Source: a virus (lineage: Duplodnaviria > Heunggongvirae > Uroviricota > Caudoviricetes). Taken from it: a stretch of 15,450 nt of DNA. The stretch covers positions 1 to 15,450 of IMG/VR virus record IMGVR_UViG_2713897054_000018, one strand, 5' to 3'. Position numbers and translations under genes: made by a program. Below, one piece after another: positions 1 to 15,450 of this stretch. Below the pieces are notes generated by a model. It did no database searches. It saw only the letters and a list, made by a program, of their open reading frames with translations, and had not been told where the DNA came from. Numbering within the stretch: position 1 is the stretch's first letter; every line of letters begins with the position of its first letter.

Positions 1-324
1 TAAACTCACAGCAAAGAAAGAAGCAATCCTAATATCCATAAATGCATCTGGACCACTGATTAAGGGAAATAAATAGGTTAAGAAATAATTTGTTATCTCC
101 TTATCTGCTGGAGAGGCGGTAGTTAATTTTTTACTGGTTACAGAATTATATTTAATTGCGTATTTAACAATCAAAACACACAGTAAAAGTATAATTGCAC
201 ACAATGATAAGTAAGCAATCATAAATTTATAGTGTTTTGATATACATGAAAGAAAAGCTAAGGTAAAAAATACCGGAGCAACTGAGCTGGCAGTAAGAAG
301 ATATTTGGCAAGCTTATTTAACAT
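1..324 (-). CDS. Hypothetical integral membrane protein, N-terminal 108 codons only; gene continues beyond the left edge of the window
   Basis: Hand translation of the minus strand from ATG at 324-322 gives MLNKLAKYLLTASSVAPVFFTLAFLSCISKHYKFMIAYLSLCAIILLLCVLIVKYAIKYNSVTSKKLTTASPADKEITNYFLTYLFPLISGPDAFMDIRIASFFAVSL with no stop before position 1. GGAGG lies 7 nt upstream of the ATG (+ strand 331-335 CCTCC). Two or three strongly hydrophobic segments suggest transmembrane helices. AT-rich. No family recognised. Confidence 0.5.
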   Translation of the reverse strand, partial: MLNKLAKYLLTASSVAPVFFTLAFLSCISKHYKFMIAYLSLCAIILLLCVLIVKYAIKYNSVTSKKLTTASPADKEITNYFLTYLFPLISGPDAFMDIRIASFFAVSL

Positions 325-495
325 ATTATCCTCCTTATCTGCCCTGGTGTCTGTATATAAAAACAGTATAACATCAATTTAAGCATCAAAGAAGATAATA
401 AAAATCAATTAAATCATAATGATGCCTGCGTTTTTAAAGTGTGGGCTTTTGGAGGCGGGTAATGTACGCGCGTATTCCCTGGAGATTCCATTTAA

Positions 496-513
496 AAGGC
501 TACGTATGTAGCC
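496..513 (-). terminator. Possible hairpin terminator or RNA structure just downstream of the 103-aa gene
   Basis: Perfect inverted repeat AGGCTAC-GTAT-GTAGCCT (7-bp stem, 4-nt loop) starting 9 nt after the stop of the 522..833 ORF. The trailing sequence on the minus strand (TTTAAAT) is only weakly U-rich. Confidence 0.25.
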
Positions 514-521
514 TCATGTAT

Positions 522-833
522 TTAAGAGTACTGGCCCCAATCTCTGGCAATAAACCAGTTTGGCGTCCAGCTAACAAACTCTTGCGGATGAAAGTTTTGA
601 GGGATTACAACTAGAGATACAATCGCTTCAGGTTGCAAACTGAGAACATGACTTTTTTTATCGCTTTCGTAATCCCAAAAATGGAATCTGTCACTTTTAT
701 CATGAGCTCTACGACTAGGACCGAAGTCCATAGGCGCAGTTAATCTTGTGATTGTCGCGTTATCTTCTTTTGAATAAAAAGTTAGCTGAATTTTTAAACA
801 ACTATGAATGGCATCAATGAATTTATCGCGCAT
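522..833 (-). CDS. Hypothetical 103-aa protein in the satellite variable (hotspot) region; function unknown
   Basis: ORF track 522..833 minus. Strong RBS: minus-strand sequence AAGGAG then 6 nt then ATG (+ strand 840-845 CTCCTT). AT-rich codon usage unlike the P4 core. No recognisable catalytic motif by eye. Confidence 0.55.
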   Translation of the reverse strand: MRDKFIDAIHSCLKIQLTFYSKEDNATITRLTAPMDFGPSRRAHDKSDRFHFWDYESDKKSHVLSLQPEAIVSLVVIPQNFHPQEFVSWTPNWFIARDWGQYS

Positions 834-959
834 ACGTTCTCCTTTGTAGTTACTAAATTAATATCCTCTATTGATAGATTATTGTGTGTGATCATTGCGG
901 CATTTAATAAAACGTAATGAGTTCATTGTATTTTATTTATGTTATCAGCCTTGCGCGCA

Positions 960-978
960 GTGCTTTCCCCGCCTCGCC
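960..978. other. cos: cos site: 19-nt cohesive-end sequence of the P2/P4 family
   Basis: Sequence GTGCTTTCCCCGCCTCGCC is the exact reverse complement of the P2/P4 cohesive end as I recall it (GGCGAGGCGGGGAAAGCAC). Position is as expected, about 165 bp beyond the end of psu. Confidence 0.6.
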
Positions 979-1080
979 CGCCCGCTTTGCGGGGCGGTTT
1001 TAATGCAGTTGCACTGACACGCTCAGACCGCGCCGGGAATGGCGCGGTTTGCAGAAAATGAGGCAGGGAAACGCATGCAA

Positions 1081-1112
1081 AGCCATGCACCTTATCGATG
1101 CATGGCTTTTTT
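1081..1112. terminator. Palindromic hairpin plus T-run between cos and psu; likely terminator of the late operon, possibly bidirectional
   Basis: AGCCATGCA-(8 nt)-TGCATGGCT followed by TTTTTT on the + strand. It lies 30 nt downstream of the psu stop on the minus strand. The stem is self-complementary so it can form on either transcript. Confidence 0.4.
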
Positions 1113-1142
1113 CAGTAAAAACGGGCGGATTTTCGGGGAGTT

Positions 1143-1715
1143 TTACACAGACTGATGTGATGCCAGTTGCGCACTTTTACGCGAAAAAATCATGTTCTGC
1201 GCAGGAGTGAATTTTTCACGGCTGTCATCCACCGAAGCAGCGTCAGGCCTGAATCCGATGGTCGTTAAAATGTCGCTATCCTGTGCGGAATAATTAATTT
1301 TTTCTCCCTTCGCAAGCCAGGACAGAAGGGCTTCACGCAGGGCATCTGTGGCCCGCTGTATGGCACAGTTTCGGGCAATGGCCGTCAGCTCACTGTAGCC
1401 CATCAGCTCCGGTGCCAGTGCCGCCGCCAGTGCTGTGCCGTGCTGCTGCATAAAATCATTCAGCCGGTCGCGGATGCTGATGTGCTGAACGGCTTCATGC
1501 GAACGAATATAACGACCGGCGGCCTGATTCACCTGCCATTTTCTGACTTCGATAATATTGCGTAATTCGTCCAGGCGACTGACGTTTCTGCCTTCTCCTG
1601 ACAGAAGCCGCAGGTATTCCTGTTCGGCCGCTGCCAGCTCATTTTTGCGTTGCAGCCATGCTGCTTTGTTATTCTGACAGGTGTCAAAGGCCTGCTGTAA
1701 GGCTGTGCTTTCCAT
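1143..1715 (-). CDS. psu: Psu, polarity suppression protein (Rho antagonist and capsid decoration protein) of P4-type satellites
   Basis: 190-aa ORF, the same length as P4 Psu. The sequence matches my recollection of P4 Psu (MESTALQQAFDTCQNNKAAWLQRKNEL...). It is last in the sid-delta-psu order and next to cos. Confidence 0.9.
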   Translation of the reverse strand: MESTALQQAFDTCQNNKAAWLQRKNELAAAEQEYLRLLSGEGRNVSRLDELRNIIEVRKWQVNQAAGRYIRSHEAVQHISIRDRLNDFMQQHGTALAAALAPELMGYSELTAIARNCAIQRATDALREALLSWLAKGEKINYSAQDSDILTTIGFRPDAASVDDSREKFTPAQNMIFSRKSAQLASHQSV

Positions 1716-1788
1716 CGTTATCTCTTTCTCATCATGCTGAAGAATAAAAATACGGTGTGCGGCGACGGCCGGTGTTAACCGGCAGCCC

Positions 1789-2289
1789 TCATTCCAGACG
1801 CAGCGAATATGATTGTGTTTTTAACCGTACTGGCGGCAGTTCCTGTTTTTCATGCAGGCGTTCTGCCAGTTCGTCCGGCGTGACCGGGCGGACAATGAAG
1901 CGGTTGATGGTCTGAAGCGTTTTAAACACCAGACCACAGCCCGGATCCGTGCACACATAAAAACGCTCGGTGACTTCCTGAGACAGACGCCGCGATGTTC
2001 TTGACAGTGCAAGGCCTTTACATCTCCGACAACAATATCCGGTAACAAGCATTCTTTTCGGGCGTTTCATACTGCCGGAGGCTGACGTCAGTGAATCGCG
2101 GTATCTCTGTTTGCCTGAAATGTATTCCATTCCTGAATCTTTACAGTCAGAGAAAAAGCTTTCACTCGCTTCAAATGTCGCAGAGCAATAAATATTCCGG
2201 CACTGTGCAATCATTATCTTGGTGCCATCGTCCATGAAATGTGCGCGGCGGGTGTGAGCAACATGTCCACACGACGGGCAGTAAATCAT
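1789..2289 (-). CDS. delta: Delta, late-gene transcriptional activator (tandem Ogr-like zinc-finger domains)
   Basis: 166-aa ORF, the same length as P4 Delta. Two Cys4 zinc-finger units are present (CPSCGH...C..C and CRRCKG...C..C). Its start overlaps the sid stop (ATGA at 2286-2289). Confidence 0.9.
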   Translation of the reverse strand: MIYCPSCGHVAHTRRAHFMDDGTKIMIAQCRNIYCSATFEASESFFSDCKDSGMEYISGKQRYRDSLTSASGSMKRPKRMLVTGYCCRRCKGLALSRTSRRLSQEVTERFYVCTDPGCGLVFKTLQTINRFIVRPVTPDELAERLHEKQELPPVRLKTQSYSLRLE

Positions 2290-3020
2290 GACAGCAGTCC
2301 TCTGGCCTTAAGCTCTGCACCCTGCTGGTCTATTTTGTCCTGCCACACCTTGCGCTGTGCCGGTGTGCCTGCCACCTCATAATCCATGTGCGGGAGTGTT
2401 GCCGCTGACAGTCCGGTCAGCCGGAGAACCGGCTCGCCGGTGAGGCTGATTTGCATCTGTTTTATTTTCTGTTCCAGCGATGATTTCACCTGCTGCATGA
2501 CAGCCTTTTCCGCCGCGACGTAGCCCTGATGGCCGGTGGTGTTGGCGAGCGGATTTTCCTGTACCAGGATGCTCAGATGCATTGCCCGGACAAGCGCCTC
2601 ACAGGTTTCATTCAGGGCGTGTTCCAGCTCATGCTCTGCATACAGACTCAGCAGGTGATGATGTGCCTTCCGGTAGGCGGTGGCCGTGCTGTCACACGCC
2701 CCTTTCAGGCGTTCACATTCAAAATTCAGCACCACGGCCAGATTGTCATATTCCTGTACCAGCTCCCGGCGTGCCACGCGCTCAATGTGGCGCTGTTTCA
2801 GCTCGTCGCTCAGGACACCACCGGCTGCACGAAAGGCCGTGCGCCAGTCGTCAGCGTCGTTTCCGTCGGCCTGCGCCAGCGCATTTTTTTCCTGCTCTGC
2901 CCGTTCAATGGCCGTGATGGTCTCATCCATCAGGCGGGCGTTCTCAAGATGAGCGGCTCTGGCCTTTTCCAGTTGTGCCAGCGCGGGTTGCAGATATTCA
3001 GGGATGGTGTTGTCAGACAT
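2286..3020 (-). CDS. sid: Sid, capsid size-determination (external scaffold) protein
   Basis: The ORF track gives 250 aa from a GTG at 3038. The ATG at 3020 has GAGGAG 7 nt upstream and gives 244 aa, the P4 Sid length. It is the first gene of the late operon and is translationally coupled to delta. Confidence 0.85.
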   Translation of the reverse strand: MSDNTIPEYLQPALAQLEKARAAHLENARLMDETITAIERAEQEKNALAQADGNDADDWRTAFRAAGGVLSDELKQRHIERVARRELVQEYDNLAVVLNFECERLKGACDSTATAYRKAHHHLLSLYAEHELEHALNETCEALVRAMHLSILVQENPLANTTGHQGYVAAEKAVMQQVKSSLEQKIKQMQISLTGEPVLRLTGLSAATLPHMDYEVAGTPAQRKVWQDKIDQQGAELKARGLLS

Positions 3021-3092
3021 TTTCCGGCTCCTCGTCACTTCAGGTTAAGAAAATTGTGACGTACACCGGACAACAACACGACGCATTGCAGA

Positions 3093-3110
3093 TGTGCCAG
3101 CCCTGACACA
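3093..3110 (-). promoter_or_regulatory. Candidate Delta/Ogr binding site (TGT-N12-ACA) of the sid late promoter
   Basis: TGT GCCAGCCCTGAC ACA dyad centred about 80 bp upstream of the sid ATG, which is the right distance for a site centred near -55 with a short 5' UTR. A second TGT-N12-ACA at 3055-3072 is too close to sid to serve the same promoter. Confidence 0.45.
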
Positions 3111-3189
3111 GGAGACTCATCCTCAGACCGGCAAGCCAGGAAAAGGTCGCAGGAAAAACCGGCTTACTGTTTGTTTTTTTATATTTTAC

Positions 3190-3293
3190 TGTTCACCTCT
3201 GTTCACCATAAGAAAAAAGATAAGTAATACAGTAAGTTAAATGGTGAACAATCGCAGTAATGACTGTTCACCGTCTGTTCACCACTGTTCACC
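3190..3293. repeat. ori-like cluster of type I iterons (TGTTCACC), the expected binding sites for the alpha protein
   Basis: Exact TGTTCACC at 3190-3197, 3200-3207, 3265-3272, 3276-3283 and 3286-3293, plus an inverted copy GGTGAACA at 3243-3250. Lies between the divergent sid promoter and the leftward-operon promoters. Confidence 0.7.
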
Positions 3294-3452
3294 CGCTCAT
3301 GGACTTTTTGTGCTGTTTACTACTGTTTGTTTTTATTAATTCGCCGGGAATGAATAAGAAGAAACGATTTGTATTTCACTATAAAAATTACGAATTGCTT
3401 TAAGTGGCTTTAAATGACTTTAAGTGGGAATGAACAAAAAACACACAGTCAT

Positions 3453-3470
3453 TGTAAGGCGGCCGGAACA
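3453..3470 (+). promoter_or_regulatory. Candidate Delta/Ogr binding site (TGT-N12-ACA) of the late promoter for the leftward operon (P4 PLL equivalent)
   Basis: TGT AAGGCGGCCGGA ACA. A site centred near -55 predicts a start near 3516, about 400 bp upstream of the candidate early promoter, which matches the P4 PLL-PLE spacing. The vis ATG follows at 3573. Confidence 0.4.
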
Positions 3471-3572
3471 AATCCCCCCTGTTGCGTCTGCCAAAAAGAT
3501 TCACAAAATAAAGCGCTACCCGAAGCCGGACGGACTTATCCGGTGCTGTATGGACATTAACGAGGTAGCCCG

Positions 3573-3839
3573 ATGCAAGCTGTTTTTTCTTCCCCGTCTC
3601 CCTCCCCTGTGACGCCACTGATGCCGCTGCCGGACATCACGCAGGAGCGTTTTTTACGTCTGCCGGAAGTGATGCACCTGTGCGGCCTGTCACGCTCGAC
3701 CATCTATGAACTCATCCGTAAGGGGGAATTTCCGCCGCAGGTGAGTCTTGGCGGTAAAAATGTGGCCTGGCTGCACTCTGAAGTCACCGCATGGATGGCC
3801 GGGCGCATTGCCGGACGCAAACGGGGGTACGACGCATGA
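3573..3839 (+). CDS. vis: Vis-like small DNA-binding protein (AlpA family excision/regulatory protein)
   Basis: 88-aa ORF with GAGG 7 nt upstream of the ATG. The core [22 protein letters not shown]....LG...V.W...EV..W is an AlpA-type helix-turn-helix signature. Position matches P4 vis, between the late and early leftward promoters. Confidence 0.65.
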
Positions 3840-3883
3840 TGATGCCTGTTCTGCAAAAACTCCCTTTTTCTGGCTTGCCTTTT

Positions 3884-3913
3884 TCCGGCATTTGCGGATA
3901 TAGTTTTTCCGCT
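3884..3913 (+). promoter_or_regulatory. Candidate sigma-70 early promoter of the leftward operon (P4 PLE equivalent)
   Basis: TTGCCT (3884-3889), 18-nt spacer, TATAGT (3908-3913). The seqA-like element begins about 15 bp downstream. Confidence 0.35.
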
Positions 3914-4104
3914 GTCGCAAAATCGGCAGCCGGGCGTGAGAACCCGAGTATGTTATCGGCGACATATGACGCGCCATGCGTCTTTTTTTGTGTCGCAATC
4001 AACGCCACAGAGCACCAGATTATGGTGTGGCGTGTGGTTTGCCGTGCAGGTATGATCCTGTTCGCAATCGCATGTTATGCCTCTGAGTCAATGGTAGCTC
4101 AGGC

Positions 4105-4155
4105 GGGGCAGCCTCCGGGCTGGCCGGTTTCCGATAACGCCGGTATTCTCACCCC
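4105..4155 (+). ncRNA. cI: Candidate CI-like immunity RNA core (seqB), flanked by complementary seqA-like (about 3929-3963) and seqC-like (about 4176-4223) targets; boundaries approximate
   Basis: CCGATAACGCCGGTATTCTCAC (about 4128-4150) is complementary to the direct repeats GCGTGAGAAC...GTTATCGG found at 3929-3963 and 4176-4220. The seqC copy overlaps the RBS of the next ORF (GTTATCGGAGG). This is the arrangement of P4 transcription-termination immunity. Confidence 0.35.
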
Positions 4156-4228
4156 CGTCTGGGCTATCGCCATCGAGCGTGAGAACTCCGGCGATAGCGT
4201 CATTTACGCTGTTATCGGAGGTTGCCTT

Positions 4229-4426
4229 ATGGCTACGACCCTTACCCCTTCACACCCTGAATTTGTCTTTGTGTTTGCGGCTGTCCGTCGCGCAGACCGT
4301 CATCCCCGTATCTGCATGCTTCGCACCGTCGCCGGTGATGAACGCAGTGCCCGCCGTTCCCTTGTCCGTGACTATGTGCTCTCCCTTGCTGCCCGTCTGC
4401 CAGTGGTGGAGGTGTCCCGTGCGTAA
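4229..4426 (+). CDS. Small early protein (65 aa), first translated ORF after the immunity leader; kil/eta-like by position
   Basis: ATG at 4229 with GGAGG 7 nt upstream. It is in frame with the longer 3791..4426 ORF, whose upstream part covers the promoter and immunity RNA region and is probably not coding. Its stop overlaps the next start (GTGCGTAA). Confidence 0.45.
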
Positions 4427-4706
4427 TAAAAAAGCCCCTCAGACCGTCTCAGCGCGTCATGACGCCCGTGAACACCTCAGCATTGAGGCTTATCATAAGC
4501 TCAACCGTGCCAGCGCCGTATCCCAGTTTGTTGGGGGTGATTTGATTCACCGTGAACTCTCCGGCCTGCATCAGCTCTACATTCCGCATATTTTCAGCTA
4601 CCTGAATGAAGATATTGATTTTGTGCTGAATGAGCTGAAAGCCAAAGGCCTGTGCCGCGATTTTCTCGCCCAGCAGAAAGACCGGGGAGACAGGACGCAT
4701 GTTTGA
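4419..4706 (+). CDS. Small early protein (95 aa); epsilon-like by position (possible helper-prophage derepressor)
   Basis: GTG start at 4419 with GGAGG 6 nt upstream. It is the gene immediately upstream of the 151-codon ORF, the same relative position as P4 epsilon. The ORF track lists a longer in-frame version from 4179 that lacks an RBS. Confidence 0.45.
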
Positions 4707-5154
4707 TTTTCCCCAGCCCGGTGAGATTTACCGTTCTGCCGGTTTTCCCGATGTGGCCGTGGTCGGCATTCTGGAAGACGGTATTCCGTGGGAAATGCCG
4801 TACCGCTGCCCGGAAATTGTCTGGAACCCGTACCGCCGTAAATTCAGTATCCTTGTGCGTATCCTCGATGACGGGCGCACCACAGACATCCCGCTGGGGC
4901 GTTTTCTGCGGGAATTTACCTGTGACCGTCCTGACCTGTTCAGACGCAGCCCCGTAAACCGGCATGCGGTACTGAAAGAAATGGCCGGAGACCCGGAATT
5001 ACAGAAATGGCGGGAGAAATATCTGGATATTTACCCGCAGGAGCCTGTTCCGGTCAGCCGGGCGGCACCGGTGGCGCGGGAATGGCGGGAAATTCCCCGC
5101 ACGGAGCCTGACCCGGAAATCACCCCGGATAACAGTTACCGCAATTATCTGTAA
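4699..5154 (+). CDS. P4 orf151-like early protein, function unknown
   Basis: Exactly 151 codons, matching the P4 orf151 length and position in the leftward operon. Its start overlaps the stop of the preceding gene. Confidence 0.6.
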   Translation: MFDFPQPGEIYRSAGFPDVAVVGILEDGIPWEMPYRCPEIVWNPYRRKFSILVRILDDGRTTDIPLGRFLREFTCDRPDLFRRSPVNRHAVLKEMAGDPELQKWREKYLDIYPQEPVPVSRAAPVAREWREIPRTEPDPEITPDNSYRNYL

Positions 5155-5289
5155 TTAAAAAACGACACCCGAAAAATTAAATGTGCGTATTCGCGCAGGG
5201 ATACGCACGTCTTCAGGAGGCGCAGATATGCCTTATCAGTTAATGCAACCGGCACGGAATGCAGTCATCTGTCACAGGGAGGAAAGCAA

Positions 5290-5610
5290 ATGAAAACACC
5301 CTTACCGCCCGTCTTACGCGCTGCCCTTTACCGTCGCGCTGTCGCCTGTGCCTGGCTGACCGTGTGCGAACGTCAGCACCGCTACCCGCATCTCACCCTT
5401 GAGTCACTGGAGGCGGCCATCGCCGCTGAGCTGGAAGGCTTTTATCTGCGCCAGCACGGTGAGGAAAAAGGGCGTCAGATAGCCTGTGCCCTGCTGGAAG
5501 ATTTAATGGAATCCGGCCCCCTGAAGGCCGCGCCGTCGCTGTCCTTTCTCGGGCTGGTTGTGATGGATGAACTCTGTGCCCGTCACATAAAAGCGCCGGT
5601 ACTGCACTGA
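5290..5610 (+). CDS. Hypothetical 106-aa early protein directly upstream of alpha
   Basis: ORF track 5290..5610 with GGAGG 7 nt upstream. Its stop lies 15 nt before the alpha start. Codon usage matches the P4 core. Confidence 0.55.
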
Positions 5611-5624
5611 AGGAGAACAACACC

Positions 5625-6062
5625 ATGAAAATGAACGTAACCGCCACCGTCAGCCATGCGCTCGGCCACTGGCCGCGTATTCTCCCGGCGCTGGGGATTC
5701 AGGTGCTGAAAAACCGTCATCAGCCCTGTCCGGTCTGTGGCGGGAGTGACCGCTTCCGTTTTGATGACAGGGAGGGGCGCGGCACCTGGTACTGCAATCA
5801 GTGTGGTGCCGGTGACGGCCTGAAACTGGTTGAAAAGGTGTTTGGTGTCTCCCCGTCCGACGCGGCCACAAAGGTGGCTGCCGTGACCGGCAGCCTGCCC
5901 CCGGCTGACCCGGCAGTGACGGCCGCCGCCGGTGCTGAAACAGAAGCCGCCCGGAAGAACGCCGCCGCACTGGCACAAACCCTGATGGCGAAAACCCGTC
6001 CCGGAACCGGTAACGCCTACCTGACCCGCAAGGCTTTCCCGGCCGGGAATGCCGGATGCTGA
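5625..6062 (+). CDS. alpha: Alpha primase-helicase, N-terminal fragment (zinc-binding primase domain), ended by an apparent frameshift
   Basis: 145-aa ORF with AGGAG 9 nt upstream. Contains a CxxC...CxxC zinc motif (CPVCGGSDRFRFDDREGRGTWYCNQCG). It continues in another frame as the 633-aa ORF, and 145 + 633 is about the 777 aa of P4 alpha. Confidence 0.75.
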   Translation: MKMNVTATVSHALGHWPRILPALGIQVLKNRHQPCPVCGGSDRFRFDDREGRGTWYCNQCGAGDGLKLVEKVFGVSPSDAATKVAAVTGSLPPADPAVTAAAGAETEAARKNAAALAQTLMAKTRPGTGNAYLTRKAFPAGNAGC

Positions 6063-7957
6063 CCGGCACACACAGAGCCGGTGGCGTGAGCTGGCGTGCC
6101 GGTGACCTTGTGGTGCCACTGTATGACGACAGCGGCGAACTGGTTAACCTTCAGTTAATCAGTGCTGACGGCCGTAAGCGCACCCTGAAAGGCGGGCAGG
6201 TCAGGGGCACCTGTCACATCCTTGAAGGACAGAATCAGGCCGGAAAACGTCTGTGGATAGCGGAGGGATACGCGACCGCACTTACCGTGCATCACCTGAC
6301 CGGTGAAACGGTGATGGTGGCGCTTTCTTCCGTGAACCTCCTTTCTCTGGCCAGCCTTGCCCGGCAGAAGCATCCGGCCTGTCAGATTGTCCTTGCCGCA
6401 GACCGTGACCTCAGCGGTGACGGCCAGAAAAAAGCCGCCGCAGCCGCAGATGCGTGTGAAGGTGTTGTTGCCCTGCCGCCGGTCTTCGGTGACTGGAATG
6501 ATGCCTTCACGCAGTACGGCGGGGAAGCCACCCGTAAGGCCATTTATGATGCCATCCGGCCACCGGCTGAAAGCCCGTTCGACACCATGAGCGAAGCGGA
6601 GTTTTCCGCCATGAGTACCAGCGAAAAGGCCATGCGTATCTATGAGCATTACGGCGAGGCGCTCGCGGTTGATGCCAACGGCCAGCTTCTGTCCCGTTAT
6701 GAAAATGGTGTCTGGAAGGTGCTGCCACCACAGGACTTTGCCCGGGATGTGGCCGGGCTGTTTCAGCGGCTGCGCGCGCCGTTCTCCTCCGGGAAGGTGG
6801 CCTCCGTGGTGGACACCCTGAAGCTGATTATTCCGCAGCAGGAAGCCCCCTCCCGCCGCCTGATTGGCTTTCGTAACGGCGTGCTCGACACGCAGAACGG
6901 CACGTTCCACCCGCACAGTCCGTCACACTGGATGCGCACCCTGTGCGATGTGGATTTCACCCCGCCGGTGGAAGGGGAAACGCTGGAAACCCACGCCCCC
7001 GCGTTCTGGCGCTGGCTTGACCGTGCCGCCGGTGGCCGTGCGGAAAAACGCGACGTGATTCTGGCCGCACTGTTTATGGTGCTGGCAAACCGCTACGACT
7101 GGCAGCTCTTTCTGGAGGTGACCGGTCCCGGCGGCAGCGGCAAAAGTATCATGGCCGAAATAGCCACCCTGCTGGCCGGGGAGGATAACGCCACGTCGGC
7201 CACCATTGAGACGCTGGAATCCCCGCGTGAACGTGCCGCGTTAACTGGCTTCTCACTGATACGCCTGCCGGACCAGGAAAAATGGAGCGGCGACGGAGCC
7301 GGACTCAAGGCCATCACCGGCGGCGATGCAGTGTCCGTTGACCCGAAATACCGGGATGCGTACTCCACGCACATCCCGGCGGTGATTCTGGCCGTGAACA
7401 ATAACCCGATGCGCTTCACCGACCGCAGCGGCGGCGTGTCACGCCGGCGGGTGATTATTCACTTCCCGGAACAGATAGCCCCGCAGGAGCGCGACCCGCA
7501 GCTTAAGGACAAAATCACCCGCGAGCTGGCGGTCATCGTGCGTCACCTGATGCAGAAGTTCAGCGACCCGATGCTCGCCCGGTCACTGCTTCAGTCCCAG
7601 CAGAACTCAGACGAGGCGCTGAACATCAAACGGGATGCCGACCCGACGTTTGATTTTATCGGCTATCTGGAAACCCTGCCGCAGACCAGCGGCATGTATA
7701 TGGGGAACGCCAGTATCATCCCGCGTAATTACCGTAAATACCTCTATCACGCCTATCTGGCCTACATGGAGGCAAACGGCTACCGGAATGTACTCAGTCT
7801 GAAAATGTTCGGGCTGGGGCTGCCGGTGATGCTGAAGGAATACGGACTGAATTACGAGAAGCGCCATACCAAACAGGGGATACAGACCAACCTGACGCTG
7901 AAAGAGGAAAGCTACGGCGACTGGCTGCCAAAATGTGACGACCCTGCAACAGCCTGA
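6056..7957 (+). CDS. alpha: Alpha primase-helicase, C-terminal part (TOPRIM-like primase core plus helicase with Walker A GPGGSGKS)
   Basis: 633-aa ORF. Its frame is open back to 6014 and overlaps the N-terminal fragment. Walker A motif VTGPGGSGKS is present. It is followed directly by the crr iteron repeats. Confidence 0.8.
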   Translation: MLTGTHRAGGVSWRAGDLVVPLYDDSGELVNLQLISADGRKRTLKGGQVRGTCHILEGQNQAGKRLWIAEGYATALTVHHLTGETVMVALSSVNLLSLASLARQKHPACQIVLAADRDLSGDGQKKAAAAADACEGVVALPPVFGDWNDAFTQYGGEATRKAIYDAIRPPAESPFDTMSEAEFSAMSTSEKAMRIYEHYGEALAVDANGQLLSRYENGVWKVLPPQDFARDVAGLFQRLRAPFSSGKVASVVDTLKLIIPQQEAPSRRLIGFRNGVLDTQNGTFHPHSPSHWMRTLCDVDFTPPVEGETLETHAPAFWRWLDRAAGGRAEKRDVILAALFMVLANRYDWQLFLEVTGPGGSGKSIMAEIATLLAGEDNATSATIETLESPRERAALTGFSLIRLPDQEKWSGDGAGLKAITGGDAVSVDPKYRDAYSTHIPAVILAVNNNPMRFTDRSGGVSRRRVIIHFPEQIAPQERDPQLKDKITRELAVIVRHLMQKFSDPMLARSLLQSQQNSDEALNIKRDADPTFDFIGYLETLPQTSGMYMGNASIIPRNYRKYLYHAYLAYMEANGYRNVLSLKMFGLGLPVMLKEYGLNYEKRHTKQGIQTNLTLKEESYGDWLPKCDDPATA

Positions 7958-8008
7958 CCCACCTGACCGGCATCTGCCGGTCTTTTTTTTATCCCGACAT
8001 CCCCCGAA

Positions 8009-8275
8009 GGTGAACAATCCACTGTTCACCCTTCACCGTATATTCACCCGTTATCACACTGAAATTAAAAGAGAAAAACGAAAGGTGAACAGTGTAATCA
8101 AATCAAAAAAACTTTTTTTCTCCCTGTGTGATTTCAGTACGGGGGATTAATCACCGGTATGAGTCACACCGGCAGAATGCCGGAGGTGAAGAATCGAATG
8201 TTCACCCTTCACCCATTATTCACCACCTATCACTCTGAAATAAAAGGAGAAAAAAGAAAGGTGAACAGTGTGAAC
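8009..8275. repeat. crr-like cis replication region: two direct repeats of about 85-120 bp, each carrying TGTTCACC iterons
   Basis: Repeat unit 1 at about 8020-8105 and unit 2 at about 8194-8280 (CCACTGTTCACCCTTCACCG...GAAAGGTGAACAGTG in both). Exact octamers at 8009-8016 and 8083-8090 (both inverted), 8023-8030, 8199-8206 and 8259-8266 (inverted), plus degenerate copies. About 4.8 kb from the ori-like cluster. Confidence 0.7.
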
Positions 8276-8319
8276 AGTTCTTTCGAAAAAAAATTTTTTA
8301 TGTGGATAAAAGATGCACT

Positions 8320-8346
8320 GGTTTGGATCCGAGCTACGGATCCAAA
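8320..8346. repeat. Perfect 11-bp inverted repeat with 5-nt loop (GTTTGGATCCG agcta CGGATCCAAAC)
   Basis: Read directly from the sequence. It sits in the AT-rich stretch between crr and the att-like core. It could be a protein binding site or an RNA hairpin. Confidence 0.4.
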
Positions 8347-8492
8347 CTTACTGATTAAAAATGATTTAACTTTCCGATTTATTGATGGGCTGAAAATAGA
8401 TTGGTCAGAAAAACAGTGGGGGCACAAAAGGGGGCATATTTCATTGTTGTATTTTATTATTTGTTTTTTATCATTAACTTATTTTGATGTTT

Positions 8493-8513
8493 GAGTCCGG
8501 CCTTCGCACCACA
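8493..8513 (+). other. att-like core: fragment resembling the 3' end of a tRNA-Leu (leuX-like) gene; probable right boundary of the satellite
   Basis: GAGTCCGGCCTTCGCACCA resembles the T-arm and acceptor 3' end of E. coli leuX as I recall it (GAGTCCGGCCTTCGGCACCA), differing by one base. There is no intact T-stem or anticodon arm upstream, so it is a fragment. A strong terminator follows, and composition changes on both sides. Confidence 0.45.
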
Positions 8514-8735: not shown

Positions 8736-11700
8736 TTATATCTGCCCGCCTACACCTTTAAACTTCTCAATAAACGCGACGATCTTCTGGAAAACCGTCT
8801 GTTTTTTCGTCTTATATTGCGGATTTAACGGACTGAGTTTTGGCAATGTCTCGTTTAATTCCGTGCCATTTTCGGTGGCGTATTCGCGTTTTAAAGACGT
8901 GCGAATATAGCGTTTCGCCGCCTCTTCATTGAGATTTTCTTCTTTGATCAAGGCTTCTGCTTCACGTTGCTGTTCGCGTTGAGCAAAGGTAAAAAACGCG
9001 TCAATGATGCTGGCTTTATCCGGCAAATCATCCAGGTTCGTTTGCTGAATAAAATCGACCACCAGACCTTCTTTGGCACGGTTCCCAAGGCTTGAACGAA
9101 TTAAGCGTTTGACCTCTTCGGTCATTTCGCCCTTACCTTTGTTTTGTCTGTTGTGTTCGAAAATCAGTCCAAGGATATAATCCAGGTTTATTTCCTGAGA
9201 CTTCAGCAAATCGATTTCAAAAACCACGTCATCCCAGTCAGTAGTTAACTTTTCTTTTTTGCCAGCCTCTTTCTCGCGGCGCTGCCAGTCACGAATATCG
9301 TTATAGGCAGAACGATAATCCTGAATCTTGCGTTCAGCAGGGAGACGAATCGTTTGTAATTCAGCGAACTTTTCATCATCCACATAATGTTCTTCTTTGA
9401 ATTTTTCTACCGCAACAGGATCGCTAAGATCGATTTGTTGCAGGGCTTTCAGCGTGGCAAATTCATCATAGTTTTGCAGGATGTTCTCGGCACGCAGGTA
9501 TTCACCAAACAGTTTAACGAAGTCTTTCTTCTCTTTTTCACTTTCAATACTGGCAGGGTCAGGGAACCGTTGTTCCAGTTCTGAAACTACTGCCATAAAG
9601 CCGCGTTTAGCTTCACCAGTGGCAGCATCAGTAAAGCCTTCCATATACTCTGCATAACTCTTTTCTAACACTACATTTTTGGTATTTTTATCACCAAACA
9701 GCGTTATGGCATCAATGGTTGAGCGTTCCAGATCCCGGAAAGTGACGATGTTACCGAAGGTTTTAGTGGCGTTATAAATGCGGTTGGTGCGGGAGAATGC
9801 CTGCATCAGGCCGTGAAAACGCAAGTTTTTATCGACGAATAGCGTGTTCAATGTTGGAGCGTCGAAGCCGGTTAAAAACATCCCAACGACAATTAACAGA
9901 TCGATATCCTGATTTTTAACCCGTTGGGCTAAATCACGATAGTAGTTCTGAAAACCGTTACTGTCGGTGCTGAAGTTAGTTTTAAAATAGCTGTTATACT
10001 CACGAATTGCAGCGTCAAGAAACTCTTTAGCACTGCTGTCCATTGCGCTGGTATCAAAAGTTTCATCGGAAATTTCACCAATGGCATTTTGTTCTTCATT
10101 GGCGGCAAAGGAGAAGATTGTCGCAACACGCAGCGGTTTATAGGTAGCCGATTTATTAGCTGCTTCCTCTTGTAACCGTTTAAACGTCGCGTAATAGGCT
10201 TTCGCGGCATCCACGCTACTCACTGCCAGCATGGCATTAAAGCCTTTGGAACCTGGGAAAGTACGGTGGGTCTTCTGGCGGAAGTTATTCAGAATATATT
10301 GCGTAATTTCCTGTATACGCATGGGATGAAGAAACGCCTGCTGATTTTCAGCCGCACTCAGTTTTTTCTCGTCGGTTTCTGTCTCTAAAGACTTAAACTG
10401 TGGCCGCACATCGTTGTAGTCCACCTTGAATTTAAGCACTTTTTCATCTCGAATCGCATCGGTAATAACATATGAATGCAATTCACGACCAAATACACTG
10501 GCGGTCGTTTCTGAACCTAAAGCGTTTTCCGGGAAAATAGGGGTACCGGTAAAACCAAACTGATAATAGCGTTTGAATTTCTTCTTCAGGTTTTTCTGCG
10601 CTTCTCCAAACTGGCTGCGGTGGCATTCATCAAATATAAACACCACTTGCTGATTGTATACAGGCAGGTCGCTTTCTGCTTTCATCAGGTTATTAAGTTT
10701 CTGAATAGTGGTGACGATAATTTTGTTATCGTCCTTATCCAGATTTCGTTTAAGACCTGCTGTATTTTCCGAGCCGTTAACACTATCTGGCGAAAAACGC
10801 TGATATTCCTTCATGGTCTGGTAATCGAGATCTTTCCTGTCGACCACAAAGAAAACTTTATCAATAAAGTCCAGTTCTGTTGCCAGACGTGCGGCTTTAA
10901 AGCTGGTCAGTGTTTTACCAGAACCGGTTGTGTGCCAGATAAAGCCACCGCTTTCGGGGGTAGACCAGTTTTTCGCTTTATAGGAGCTGTTGATTTTCCA
11001 TAAGATACGCTCAGTGGCGGCAATCTGGTACGGTCGCATCACTAGTAGCGTTTGGCTAATATCGAACACGCTGTAGTTCACTAAGACATTAAGCAGAGTA
11101 TGTTTCTGGAAAAAGGTAGCGGTAAAGTCTTTGAGGTCTTTAATCAGCGTGTTGTCTGATTTCGCCCAGTTCATGGTGAAGTCAAAACTGTTTTTATCGC
11201 GCTTTGTGGTGTTGGCAAAGTAACGGGTATCGGTGCCGTTAGAAATGACAAACAGTTGCAGATACTTAAACAGGGAATTTTCGCTGTTAAAACTCTCTTT
11301 ACTGTAACGATGTATCTGGTTGAAAGCCTCACGAATCGCCACGCCGCGCTTTTTCAGTTCGATTTGTACCAGTGGTAAGCCATTAACCAGGATCGTGACG
11401 TCATAACGGTTAGCATGAGAACCCGCCTGTTCAAACTGCTGGATAATCTGCACCTTATTGCGCATGAGATTCTTTTTATCTATCAAATAGATGTTCTCAA
11501 GACGCTCGTCATCAAAAATAAAGTCGCAAATATAGTCGATATGGATTTTACGGGTCTTATCCAGAATGCCATCACTCGGGTTGTCCAGATATTGCTCCGT
11601 GAAACGCCGCCACTCGCTGTCATTAAATACCACACCATTGAGGCTCTGAAGCTGTTCCCGAACATTGGACAGCATCGCCAACTGTGATTTTACCGAAATA

Positions 11701-11852
11701 AATTCATAGCCCTGATTCCGCAGGTCCTGAATCAGTTCCCGTTCCAGGTCCGATTCGCTCTGGTAGCTGTCGCCTGTTTGCTCAGCTTTGATGTACTTAT
11801 CAAGGACGATAAAGTTATTGGATTCAGCAATGGTGTGTGTCTGATGAGTCAT
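8736..11852 (-). CDS. hsdR: Type I restriction enzyme R subunit (HsdR), type IC-like
   Basis: 1038-aa ORF, the same length as EcoR124I HsdR. N-terminal PD-(D/E)xK-like nuclease motif (D...IELKK), SF2 helicase motif I (HTTGSGKT) and motif II (DECHRSQ). Order hsdM-hsdS-hsdR with a 121-bp gap before hsdR is typical of the IC family. Confidence 0.9.
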
Positions 11853-11973
11853 AGCGCATCCTTTGTGCCGCCTGGCAAGGGCCGGAAGGGCGTTAAGAGT
11901 GACTTCCGGCGCGTAAAAAATAGTCTATATACAGACCGGGTGTTAAGGTGGCCCGGTCGGTAGCAATGGTCAA

Positions 11974-13205
11974 TTAATTACTGACAGTTTCAGGTTTCGG
12001 GAAACTGAACAGTAAATCACGATAGTACTCGTATTGTTTCTGGCGCAACTCGATTTCACGCGGAAGGCCTTCGGTGATGGAGTTTGTCAGGGTGTCGAAT
12101 TTATCGAGAATAGATACTATACGTTCCTGTATCTCCATAGAAGGGACTGGAATTAATATCTTAGATAAATTATCAGCATTTACACGTCGAACTTTTGCGC
12201 CAGTAATATACTGTCTTTTTTGATTTTGGAATTGTTCTGTTTGAAAAAAATATGAGACATACTTAGGGTTTAAATTATGTTTGTAAATACAGGCATCACT
12301 GCTTACTGCTATATCTTCACTGCCTAACCATGCAACAGCTTTACATACATCCTCATCATTCTCACTAGTAGTTGCGATAATCAAATCTCCCTTTTGAGCT
12401 TCTTGCATTTTTTTGCAAGTGCGGTTGAAATATATGTTTTTGTTTTTTCTGTATATGTTCCGTAATACGTATAGATTTGACCATAGTGTATGCACCCTAC
12501 ACCTGCATCTATAAAGTCTTTTTTCTGAAAAGTACCACCCCGGATAAACTCGCCAATATCTTTTTGCCCCATAGGTAAATGTGGAACATCTTCGGTATTA
12601 AAACTAAACAACTGGTCGCGATAGTAGTTGTACTGTTTTTTACGCATGTTAAGCTCAGCGGTAAGCTCAGCGGTAAGTGCAGTAAACTTATCCAGAATCC
12701 GAACAATTTCAGACTGGATGGCAAGGGATTTCTCCGGATTATCCGGGCAGGGGATGGGGACTAACCTTTTTTCAATTGTAGTTTTGCTGATGTGCATCAT
12801 AGTAGAACCAGTGCTATGTGCATCTTTAAGTGCTTTAGTATCCCATTGTAACAAGTAATATAGAAACTGTTTACAAATAAGATTCGAATCTGGAACCACT
12901 TTCCATATGTGATAATGGTAAATAGATTTACCCCCATGCCAAATTCTTGGACCAAATGATGCGGACCAAGCATATAAAAGGTCACCGTTATCACAATACT
13001 TGTCTTGATCTAATTCTAAATCTGAGTAATACCAATTTTGGTTAGTAAAAAAATTACCGACTCTTAATACTGGATATTTGCCTTTGGAAAGCAGTTCTTC
13101 TTGCTTATATGCTCTCCCGTTTATTAAACGACAAACTTTAGCCAATGGCAACCACTCAACTTCAACCCCATCCAGCAATTTTTCCAGATAACTTAACTCG
13201 CTCAT
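11974..13205 (-). pseudogene. hsdS: Type I specificity subunit (HsdS), type IC family with two TAEL repeats; reading frame broken into 274- and 173-codon ORFs
   Basis: The N-terminal ORF (12381..13205) begins [21 protein letters not shown] and carries the central conserved region with LTAELTAEL. The C-terminal ORF (11974..12495) ends in the conserved ...LPREIELRQKQYEYYRDLLFSFPKPETVSN. The two overlap in different frames at a homopolymer tract (+ strand T7 at 12409-12415). The start overlaps the hsdM stop. Confidence 0.75.
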
Positions 13206-14758
13206 TTCTGCACCTCGTAGCCTTCAATTTCAGCCACAATCGCATCAATATCTTTGCGCAATTGGTCGATTTTGCTGACCGTGGTTTTCAGCTCTGCATT
13301 CAACTCAGCGATATCGATAATTTCGCGAGTATCTTTCGCTTCCACATAGCTGCTCACCGACAGGTTATAGTCATTCGCGACAACGGTCTCAAACGCGACA
13401 GATTTCGCCAGATGAGCAACATCTTCCTTGCTGGCAAATACCTGCATAATCTGTTCGATATGGGCATCGGTCAGAATGTTGTTGTTAGTCTCTTTTTTGA
13501 ACAGCTCGCTGGCATCAATAAACTGAACGTTGGTATCCGTTTTATGTTTAGACAACACCAGAATATTGACGGCAATGGTGGTGCCAAAGAACAGGTTCGG
13601 TGCGAGTGAAATCACGGTTTCGACATAGTTATTGTCAACCAGATACTGACGGATTTTCTGCTCCGCGCCGCCACGGTAAAAAATGCCCGGGAAGCAGACA
13701 ATCGCAGCACGACCTTTGGCAGAAAGATAGTTCAGCGCATGTAATACAAACGCAAAGTCAGCTTTGGATTTGGGGGCCAGAACGCCAGCCGGGGCAAAAC
13801 GTTCATCGTTAATCAGCGTCGGGTCATCGCTGCCAATCCATTTCACCGAATACGGCGGGTTAGAAACGATGGCATCAAACGGTTTTTCATCTCTGAAGTG
13901 CGGCTCAGTCAGCGTATTGCCCAGCTTGATATCAAACTTGTCGTAGTTGATGTTGTGCAAAAACATGTTCATACGCGCCAGGTTATAGGTCGTATGGTTG
14001 ATTTCCTGACCAAAAAAACCTTCTTCGATGATATGGTCATCAAACTGTTTTTTAGCCTGCAACAACAGCGAACCGGAACCTGCTGCCGGGTCGTAGATTT
14101 TGTTAACGTGGGTCTGGCCGTGCATTGCCAGTTGTGCAATCAGCTTAGAGACGTGCTGCGGTGTAAAGAACTCGCCGCCTGACTTACCAGCATTCGCCGC
14201 ATAGTTAGAAATCAGGAACTCATAGGCATCGCCGAACAGGTCAATCTGATGTTCGTTAAAGTCGCCAAGCTTTAACCCTTCAACCCCTTTCAGAACCGCA
14301 GCCAGGCGGGCATTTTTATCCTTAACGGTGTTACCCAGGCGGTTACTGGTGGTATCGAAATCAGCAAACAAACCTTTGATGTCAGCTTCTGAAGGGTAAC
14401 CGTAAGCAGAACTTTCGATAGCAACGAAGATACTGTTTAAATCTGCATTCAGTCTGTCATTGGTATTTGCTTTCGCAGCTACGTTGCAGAAAAGCTGACT
14501 TGGGTAGATGAAGTAGCCTTTAGTTTTGATGGCATCGTCTTTAATGTCATCAGTAATTACGCTGTCATCCAGTTTCGCATAACAGATACTGTCATCACCG
14601 GCTTCAATATAGCTGGAAAAATTTTCGCTGATAAAACGGTAGAAAAGCGCGCCCAGAACGTATTGCTTAAAGTCCCATCCATCGACCGAACCTCTGACAT
14701 CGTTAGCAATTTGCCAGATTTGGCGATGAAGCTCCGCGCGCTGCTGAAGGCTGGTCAT
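13202..14758 (-). CDS. hsdM: Type I N6-adenine DNA methyltransferase subunit (HsdM)
   Basis: 518-aa ORF with an AAGGA RBS. AdoMet-binding motif [10 protein letters not shown] and catalytic motif NPPY (SNPPYSVKW). It is translationally coupled to hsdS. Confidence 0.9.
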
Positions 14759-15063
14759 TTTTTATCCTTTGAATGTGTTTTTAACGTCGACTTTTGCCGG
14801 GATTTTACCGGAAGTTTTTTGGTTTTTCAGATTTGTATGACGGTGAGGAGGGGATTCAGTACCAGATTGTTAGTGCATCTTATTCAGCATTCACCGTTTG
14901 AGTCAGGAGCTACTTTATATGCCCATCGCCCATCCGTAGGTGATCAGATAATTTATTGCGAGTCACCTTCCCGATTTTCAATCTCATTATTTACCCAATC
15001 TTTCACCAGTGGATAATCCGTTTGCTACTAACGGCGAGTGTATTTTTTTACGGATGAAAGATT

Positions 15064-15233
15064 ATGCAAACAGAAGCTGAAGTCTTAACCGATCATAACG
15101 AACTAATTTGCTCGACCAGTATCGAGCGTATCGTCACAGGACGTGATAGTGCACTGAACCAGATAGCGACGTTAATCCAAAAACTTCATGATATCTCCAG
15201 TCTGACATCCAGTATTGGCGGTGATGTGGCTGC
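15064..15233 (+). CDS. Hypothetical protein, N-terminal about 56 codons only; truncated by the IS3 insertion
   Basis: The ORF track's 62-aa ORF (15064..15252) runs into the IS3 terminal repeat starting at 15234, so its last 6 codons and stop are IS-derived. The RBS is weak. Identity unknown. Confidence 0.3.
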
Positions 15234-15450
15234 TGATCTTACCCAGCAATAGTGGACACGCGGCTAAGTGAGTAAACTCTCAGTCAGAGGTGACTCACAT
15301 GACAAAAACAGTATCAACCAGTAAAAAACCCCGTAAACAGCATTCGCCTGAATTTCGCAGTGAAGCCCTGAAGCTTGCTGAACGCATCGGTGTTACTGCC
15401 GCAGCCCGTGAACTCAGCCTGTATGAATCACAGCTCTACAACTGGCGCAG
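15234..15450 (+). mobile_element. IS3 (IS3 family), left end with terminal inverted repeat; continues beyond the window
   Basis: Terminal sequence TGATCTTACCCAGCAATAGTGGACACGCGGCTAAGTGAG... matches my recollection of the IS3 left inverted repeat. It is followed by the orfA start. Confidence 0.75.
15299..15450 (+). CDS. IS3 transposase OrfA, N-terminal part (helix-turn-helix); runs off the window
   Basis: Translation MTKTVSTSKKPRKQHSPEFRSEALKLAERIGVTAAARELSLYESQLYNWR matches the IS3 OrfA N-terminus as I recall it. Confidence 0.8.
   Translation, partial: MTKTVSTSKKPRKQHSPEFRSEALKLAERIGVTAAARELSLYESQLYNWR

Follow-up and report, generated by a model that had tools for sequence, protein, structure and literature searches.

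A single missing G, and not the A7 run, splits the hsdS reading frame of a type IC system in an Escherichia coli leuX island and is probably a consensus error

Introduction

Is a type I specificity gene that falls into two reading frames beside a run of seven A's phase-variable, truncated but still functional, or intact in the organism and broken only in the assembly? This question is raised by an hsd locus in the window, as we call the whole 15,450-nt stretch of DNA that was analyzed. On the minus strand of the window, hsdM is followed by a split hsdS and then by hsdR (Table 1). The two hsdS ORFs overlap by 115 nt and are in different frames; the coordinates and lengths given for them in the initial annotation were exact. 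That annotation placed the break at the homopolymer run in the overlap and proposed that slippage could switch the specificity or the activity of the system.

Table 1. Features of the window that are discussed in the text
Feature	Position	Strand	Remarks
psu	1143-1715		
delta/ogr-like gene	1789-2289		
sid-like gene	2286-3020		
Icd-like gene	3836-4426		
isrK	3911-3988		Rfam
C4 antisense (CI) RNA	4087-4174		Rfam
One-base deletion, GGG to GG	6032-6033	+	Context CAA-GGG-CTT; splits the P4 alpha primase-helicase gene
hsdR	8736-11852	-	Intact; 1038 aa; Pfam EcoR124_C (E = 1.1e-71), HSDR_N, SWI2_SNF2
hsdS, C-terminal ORF	11974-12495	-	173 codons by mechanical ORF calling; Pfam Methylase_S match
hsdS, N-terminal ORF	12381-13205	-	274 aa; Pfam Methylase_S match
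One-base deletion, CC to C (+ strand)	12399	-	In hsdS
6-bp inverted repeat CTTGCA/TGCAAG (CTTGCA-N6-TGCAAG)	12402-12419	-	Around the A7 run
A7 run, codons GCA AAA AAA	12408-12414	-	T7 on + strand; wild-type length, not the frameshift site
hsdM	13202-14758	-	Intact; 518 aa; type IC methyltransferase subunit; Pfam N6_Mtase, HsdM_N; WP_000202818.1 in relatives
One-base deletion, GG to G	14909	+	Context GGA-GG-CTA; in non-coding DNA, ~150 nt upstream of the start of hsdM

Results

The operon and its family

The type IC family was originally defined by genetic complementation or antibody cross-reaction with EcoR124I subunits. In its typical gene order, hsdM and hsdS form a unit, and hsdR comes after them under a promoter of its own. 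In the window, the hsdM stop overlaps the hsdS start by 4 nt, and a gap of 121 nt separates hsdS from hsdR. HsdR aligned with the HsdR of EcoR124I (2w00_A) over residues 1-1038 with 2252 bits. HsdM aligned with the HsdM of EcoR124II (7bst_D) over residues 1-518 with 1151 bits, versus 67 bits with the HsdM of EcoKI (type IA). The repaired HsdS matched EcoR124 HsdS (7bst_A) with E = 3.5e-76. The assignment to type IC in the initial annotation is thus upheld by HsdR and HsdM, which are nearly identical to those of EcoR124I/II, and by the conserved regions of HsdS, which match and include TAELTAEL. As judged from sequence, an E. coli O91:H21-like strain carries here, on its chromosome, an ordinary hsdM-hsdS-hsdR operon of the EcoR124I family (type IC).

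The gap between hsdS and hsdR contains a weak promoter-like site (11946-11917, 9/12 matches), of a kind found at the level of chance (10 matches vs. 7.4 expected). A scan of 11800-15100 for promoters and terminators gave only chance-level matches. The full hsdS allele was present in 24 complete genomes and its second recognition domain in 123, four of them on plasmids, a distribution that reflects the domain shuffling common among type I specificity genes.

The genomic surroundings

Positions 1-8100 of the window are a P4-like satellite prophage, to which psu, the delta/ogr-like, sid-like and Icd-like genes, and the alpha primase gene belong (Table 1). In strain FWSEC0008 this prophage adjoins tRNA-Leu and its integrase, and a Kiwa KwaB-like anti-phage gene and a hypothetical neighbour lie between the integrase and psu (locus L002, 1907-3324); window positions 1-324 contain the end of the second of these two genes. 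The satellite therefore appears to carry defence cargo of its own, apart from the type I system. The satellite and hsdR are separated by an integrase remnant of 111 aa (8159-8494). Strain 2013C-3033 (locus L001, 2528-5953) has the same hsd operon directly beside tRNA-Leu without the satellite, so that the type I system seems to be part of a leuX island that is older than the insertion of the P4-like element. At its right end (15064-15450), the window has a truncated fragment of a DUF4942 / 'subunit M' gene and the beginning of an IS3 element. In relatives, mcrBC comes next, which means that several defence genes are clustered in the island.

What the two halves of hsdS encode

The N-terminal ORF has 269 native residues, followed by the out-of-frame tail LKREI and a stop, and it lacks the 141 C-terminal residues of the intact 410-aa HsdS. 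Its native part extends from the N-terminal recognition domain through all of the central conserved region, which contains TAELTAEL, to ~60 residues into recognition domain 2; the Methylase_S match covers residues 17-185. With 269 of the 410 residues native, this ORF does keep the first recognition domain and the central region, as was initially proposed. The C-terminal ORF is in the native hsdS frame only in 11974-12399. This part corresponds to residues 270-410 of the intact protein, that is, the remainder of recognition domain 2 and the conserved C-terminus. Independent expression of the downstream ORF as a C-terminal half-S was also considered and rejected, because the native part of this ORF begins in the middle of recognition domain 2 (residue 270) and includes no complete recognition domain.

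The base that is missing

The nearest complete genomes were O91:H21 FWSEC0008 and STEC2017-197, in which all 15,450 bases of the window were matched at ~100% over a span of 15,453. In both, hsdS is a single gene of 1233 nt that encodes a protein of 410 aa (WP_001293043.1); a literature search for the accession WP_001293043 gave no match. The hsdS region of the window differs from that of the two strains by one C at 12399 alone. Three-way and five-way alignments showed a single C at this position of the plus strand in the window and CC in every relative compared. On the coding strand, AAGGCT has become AAGCT, with the loss of one G of a GG pair located 8 bases past the A7 run. The intact coding strand reads GCA AAA AAA TGC AAG AAG GCT CAA AAG GGA (A K K C K K A Q K G), and that of the window continues as AAG AAG CTC AAA AGG GAG ATT TGA (K K L K R E I stop).

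The A7 run is also present in the intact alleles of the near-identical genomes, which encode the peptide ...LAKKCKKAQKGDLIIATT... By these alignments the ancestral peptide is LAKKCKKAQKGD, and not the LAKKMQEAQKGD of the initial annotation. The claim that the frame is broken at the homopolymer consequently fails: the run is equal in intact alleles, and the base is missing at 12399. Compared with these alleles, the hsdS split is one missing G of the coding-strand GG pair, with no change in the length of A7. The deletion was present in none of the 119 complete E. coli genomes that matched a 100-nt query across the site, and in none of 11 metagenome contigs, all of which carry GG.

The A7 run

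The T7 tract described within a palindrome in the ORF overlap does exist, one base away from the position assigned to it (12408-12414, not 12409-12415). It is also arithmetically right that one extra A would give a continuous ...LAKKMQEAQKGDLIIATT... frame, with a product of 410 aa. The run encodes K264-K265 of the 410 residues. The central conserved region ends near residue 205, ~60 residues before the run, which is within recognition domain 2 and not between the two recognition domains.

Of 5,426 complete E. coli genomes, 123 contained a 162-nt segment with the A7 run at its centre, and at least 94 were identical to FWSEC0008 throughout these 162 nt, A7 included. Among the diverged alleles (95-97.5% identity), the 14 listed of 28 were all ungapped 162-nt spans. 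The five loci that were fetched, two of them diverged alleles, all had A7. A pattern search in which the A-run could be replaced by any 6-10 bases and the GG pair by 1-2 bases matched 11 metagenome contigs, all with the wild-type A7 and GG; it had no match among the GTDB species representatives. No A6 or A8 variant was found by the pattern permitting 6-10 bases.

An hsd gene is taken as phase-variable when it has a mononucleotide run of at least nine bases (PMC7383803), and the A7 run, with seven, is under this criterion. The window contains 46 homopolymer runs of at least 6 bases, 8 of them in hsdS (37.6% GC). Perfect 6-bp inverted repeats with loops of 3-10 nt number 56 in the window, versus ~30 in shuffled sequences, and four are in hsdS. 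The A7 run with its inverted repeat shows no excess over chance. The repeat CTTGCA/TGCAAG was considered as a slippage-promoting hairpin and rejected as ordinary, because there are 56 such repeats in the window.

Read in the hsdS frame, the run is also a heptamer, A_AAA_AAA, that fits the X_XXY_YYZ register. By computation, slipping by -1 at this heptamer would give a product of 410 aa in the window and a truncated product of 280 aa in the intact allele.

A related hsdS allele with an equal second recognition domain is annotated as two CDSs in E. coli Z1323PEC0010 (locus L004, 855-2116). There the gene is split elsewhere, in the first recognition domain, so broken hsdS annotations are not tied to A7.

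Private changes in the window

Over the whole 15.45 kb, the changes private to the window were three one-base deletions and no substitutions. One of the deletions is that at 12399. Another affects the P4 alpha primase-helicase gene (5625-7957), which is one intact gene of 2334 nt in all relatives examined and is divided in the window into ORFs 5625-6062 (145 aa) and 6056-7957 (633 aa). The third, at 14909, precedes a weak promoter-like match on the minus strand (14830-14802). The window differs by one substitution from FWSEC0008 and by two from STEC2017-197, always agreeing with one of the two strains, which differ from each other by three substitutions and no indels. In farther relatives, the ratio of substitutions to indels was 149:3 (RM7190) and 182:6 (P15-385). 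Natural change at the locus is thus ~97% substitution and ~2-3% indels, or 30-50 substitutions per indel. By our own arithmetic, under this natural spectrum the chance that all three private changes would be indels is ~3e-5.

All three deletions remove a G from an A-G(2-3)-CT context. Among 20,000 simulated triplets, such sharing of context occurred in 0.09% at random positions and in 0.4% when positions were restricted to G/C runs. We count the common context as supporting evidence only, because the motif was noticed after the fact.

The versions of the window were absent from the complete E. coli genomes that matched 100-nt queries at the three sites (0 of 999 for 6032-6033, 0 of 300 for 14909, and the 0 of 119 already given for 12399). 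The best match at each site was of 99.0% over a 101-nt span, with one extra base relative to the window. No genome sharing the frameshift was found among the 5,426 complete E. coli genomes. Six protein queries were used in an exact look-up against a collection of ~15 billion proteins. The 274-aa and 173-aa products and both primase fragments were absent from it, and the intact HsdS was present on at least 1000 contigs. The query from 11974-12411 began one codon before an ATG and made no meaningful test.

Discussion

The most probable explanation of the split hsdS, to which we give a probability of roughly 0.8, is that the base missing at 12399 is a consensus or base-calling error in the source assembly, as inferred from comparison with relatives. 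It is preferred because the window has three private deletions and no private substitution, because these deletions have a common context and are absent elsewhere, and because a second gene, the primase, is broken in the same way. An assembly error was the scenario that the initial annotation had set against its own proposal; it is here the best-supported explanation, at another base than was expected. Some observations stand against an error. Longer A/T runs are usually the most error-prone, yet none of the 14 A/T runs of 7-8 bases in the window departs in length from that of the relatives, so the error process would have to be context-specific and not plain under-calling of homopolymers. Moreover, real private frameshifts in hsdS do occur, as in the related allele of Z1323PEC0010. 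Long-read assemblies are known to retain k-mer-specific consensus errors, with deletion errors associated with homopolymers of 2-8 nt, and single-base deletions in short homopolymers that yield 'frameshifted' pseudogenes, intact in relatives, are a described signature of residual long-read error (PMC12007338). The window resembles these gene-fragmenting errors in its context-dependent single-base deletions in short homopolymers within genes that are intact in close relatives (PMC12007338), and differs in that its longer A/T runs are all correct. In the case of an error, HsdS in the organism would be the intact 410-aa protein (WP_001293043.1) of its near-identical relatives, and this subunit would form a normal M2S1/R2M2S1 enzyme with an asymmetric bipartite target.

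It is unlikely, although the best of the remaining possibilities, that the deletion is a genuine, private and unprogrammed frameshift. The N-terminal ORF would then give either an unstable product (r-m-) or a half-S, with the chances of an active and an inactive outcome divided about evenly. The sequence as it stands does encode an ORF in which the N-terminal recognition domain is whole and the central coiled-coil helix is kept, and split hsdS genes are found in other complete genomes (Z1323PEC0010). As a half-S, two truncated subunits might pair through the central conserved helix and might methylate and restrict a palindromic duplicate of the half-site of the N-terminal domain. Such behaviour has precedent, since type IC is the only family with documented half-S homodimers (PMC3874165, section 26). 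EcoR124I HsdS(delta50), which lacks ~160 C-terminal residues, near the 141 missing here, is active and recognises GAA N7 TTC; EcoDXXI(deltaC), with Tn5 in the C-terminal domain, recognises TCA N8 TGA; and in NgoAV a truncated type IC HsdS occurs naturally (PMC3874165, section 26). The initial annotation was therefore right that a truncated HsdS can dimerise and recognise a symmetric target, as this is known for type IC truncations of such a size (PMC3874165, section 26). In the window, however, ~60 residues of an incomplete second domain would stay attached and might affect folding. A real frameshift would also have to coexist with two more private one-base deletions in an equal context and no private substitution, and the 12399 deletion is absent from all other genomes, metagenome contigs and protein sets searched.

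Readings that give the A7 run an active part are still less probable. Slipped-strand mispairing, by which a change between A7 and A8 would exchange a truncated for a full-length subunit in the manner of the poly-G tract of NgoAV, has almost no probability in our estimate. The run does fall in the ORF overlap, and one more A restores the 410-aa frame; hsdS switching driven by simple sequence repeats is documented in N. gonorrhoeae, and even G7 tracts can phase-vary in Neisseria (PMC7383803). Nevertheless, A7 is the in-frame, wild-type length and is constant in every copy whose tract was readable, the frameshift maps to another base 8 bases away (12399), and the run is shorter than the nine-base criterion (PMC7383803) and located ~60 residues inside recognition domain 2. 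The 'repair' by A8 would moreover change CKK to MQE, a version absent from 16 of 16 directly read copies of the stretch. The slippage and phase variation initially proposed are thus not supported. A-rich heptamers are known -1 slippery sites in E. coli, for example A_AAA_AAG in dnaX. It might thus be argued that the deletion is real but leaky, and that a -1 ribosomal slip, or an A added by RNA polymerase, 8 bases upstream would yield some full-length HsdS with CKK changed to MQE. The register and the 410-aa product were confirmed by computation. Yet a stimulatory element is not evident, the level of divergence permits no argument from conservation, and a real deletion, itself judged unlikely, is required; we regard this reading as highly improbable. 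Very unlikely too, if less so than either of these, is a combination in which a natural 274-aa half-S homodimer with a palindromic target would be accompanied by an occasional -1 slip that gives a little full-length subunit, so that one gene would have two specificities.

A frameshift near a homopolymer invites a story of phase variation, and the intact alleles put the lesion elsewhere. The pattern of private changes marks the hsdS frameshift as a probable assembly error. Should the deletion be real, the locus would provide one more natural truncated type IC specificity subunit, of a kind already known, and would be of modest interest for studies of E. coli methylomes and host range.

Among known systems, EcoR124I and EcoR124II of plasmid R124 are the closest to the locus. 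HsdR and HsdM are nearly identical over their full length, the gene order hsdM-hsdS-hsdR is the same, and the three conserved regions of HsdS (N-terminal, central and C-terminal) match those of EcoR124I exactly or almost exactly, with two TAEL repeats in both. In contrast, both recognition domains of the window HsdS diverge from those of EcoR124I, so the target sequence differs, and the locus is chromosomal, in a leuX tRNA island, whereas EcoR124I is on a plasmid. Taken at face value, the N-terminal ORF is like EcoR124I HsdS(delta50), EcoDXXI(deltaC) and NgoAV in that it lacks the C-terminal ~35% but retains the central conserved helix and all of the N-terminal recognition domain. Those truncations were verified by experiment and are functional, whereas that of the window is probably absent in the organism; and the break in NgoAV is tied to a poly-G tract, whereas that in the hsdS of the window is at a GG pair.
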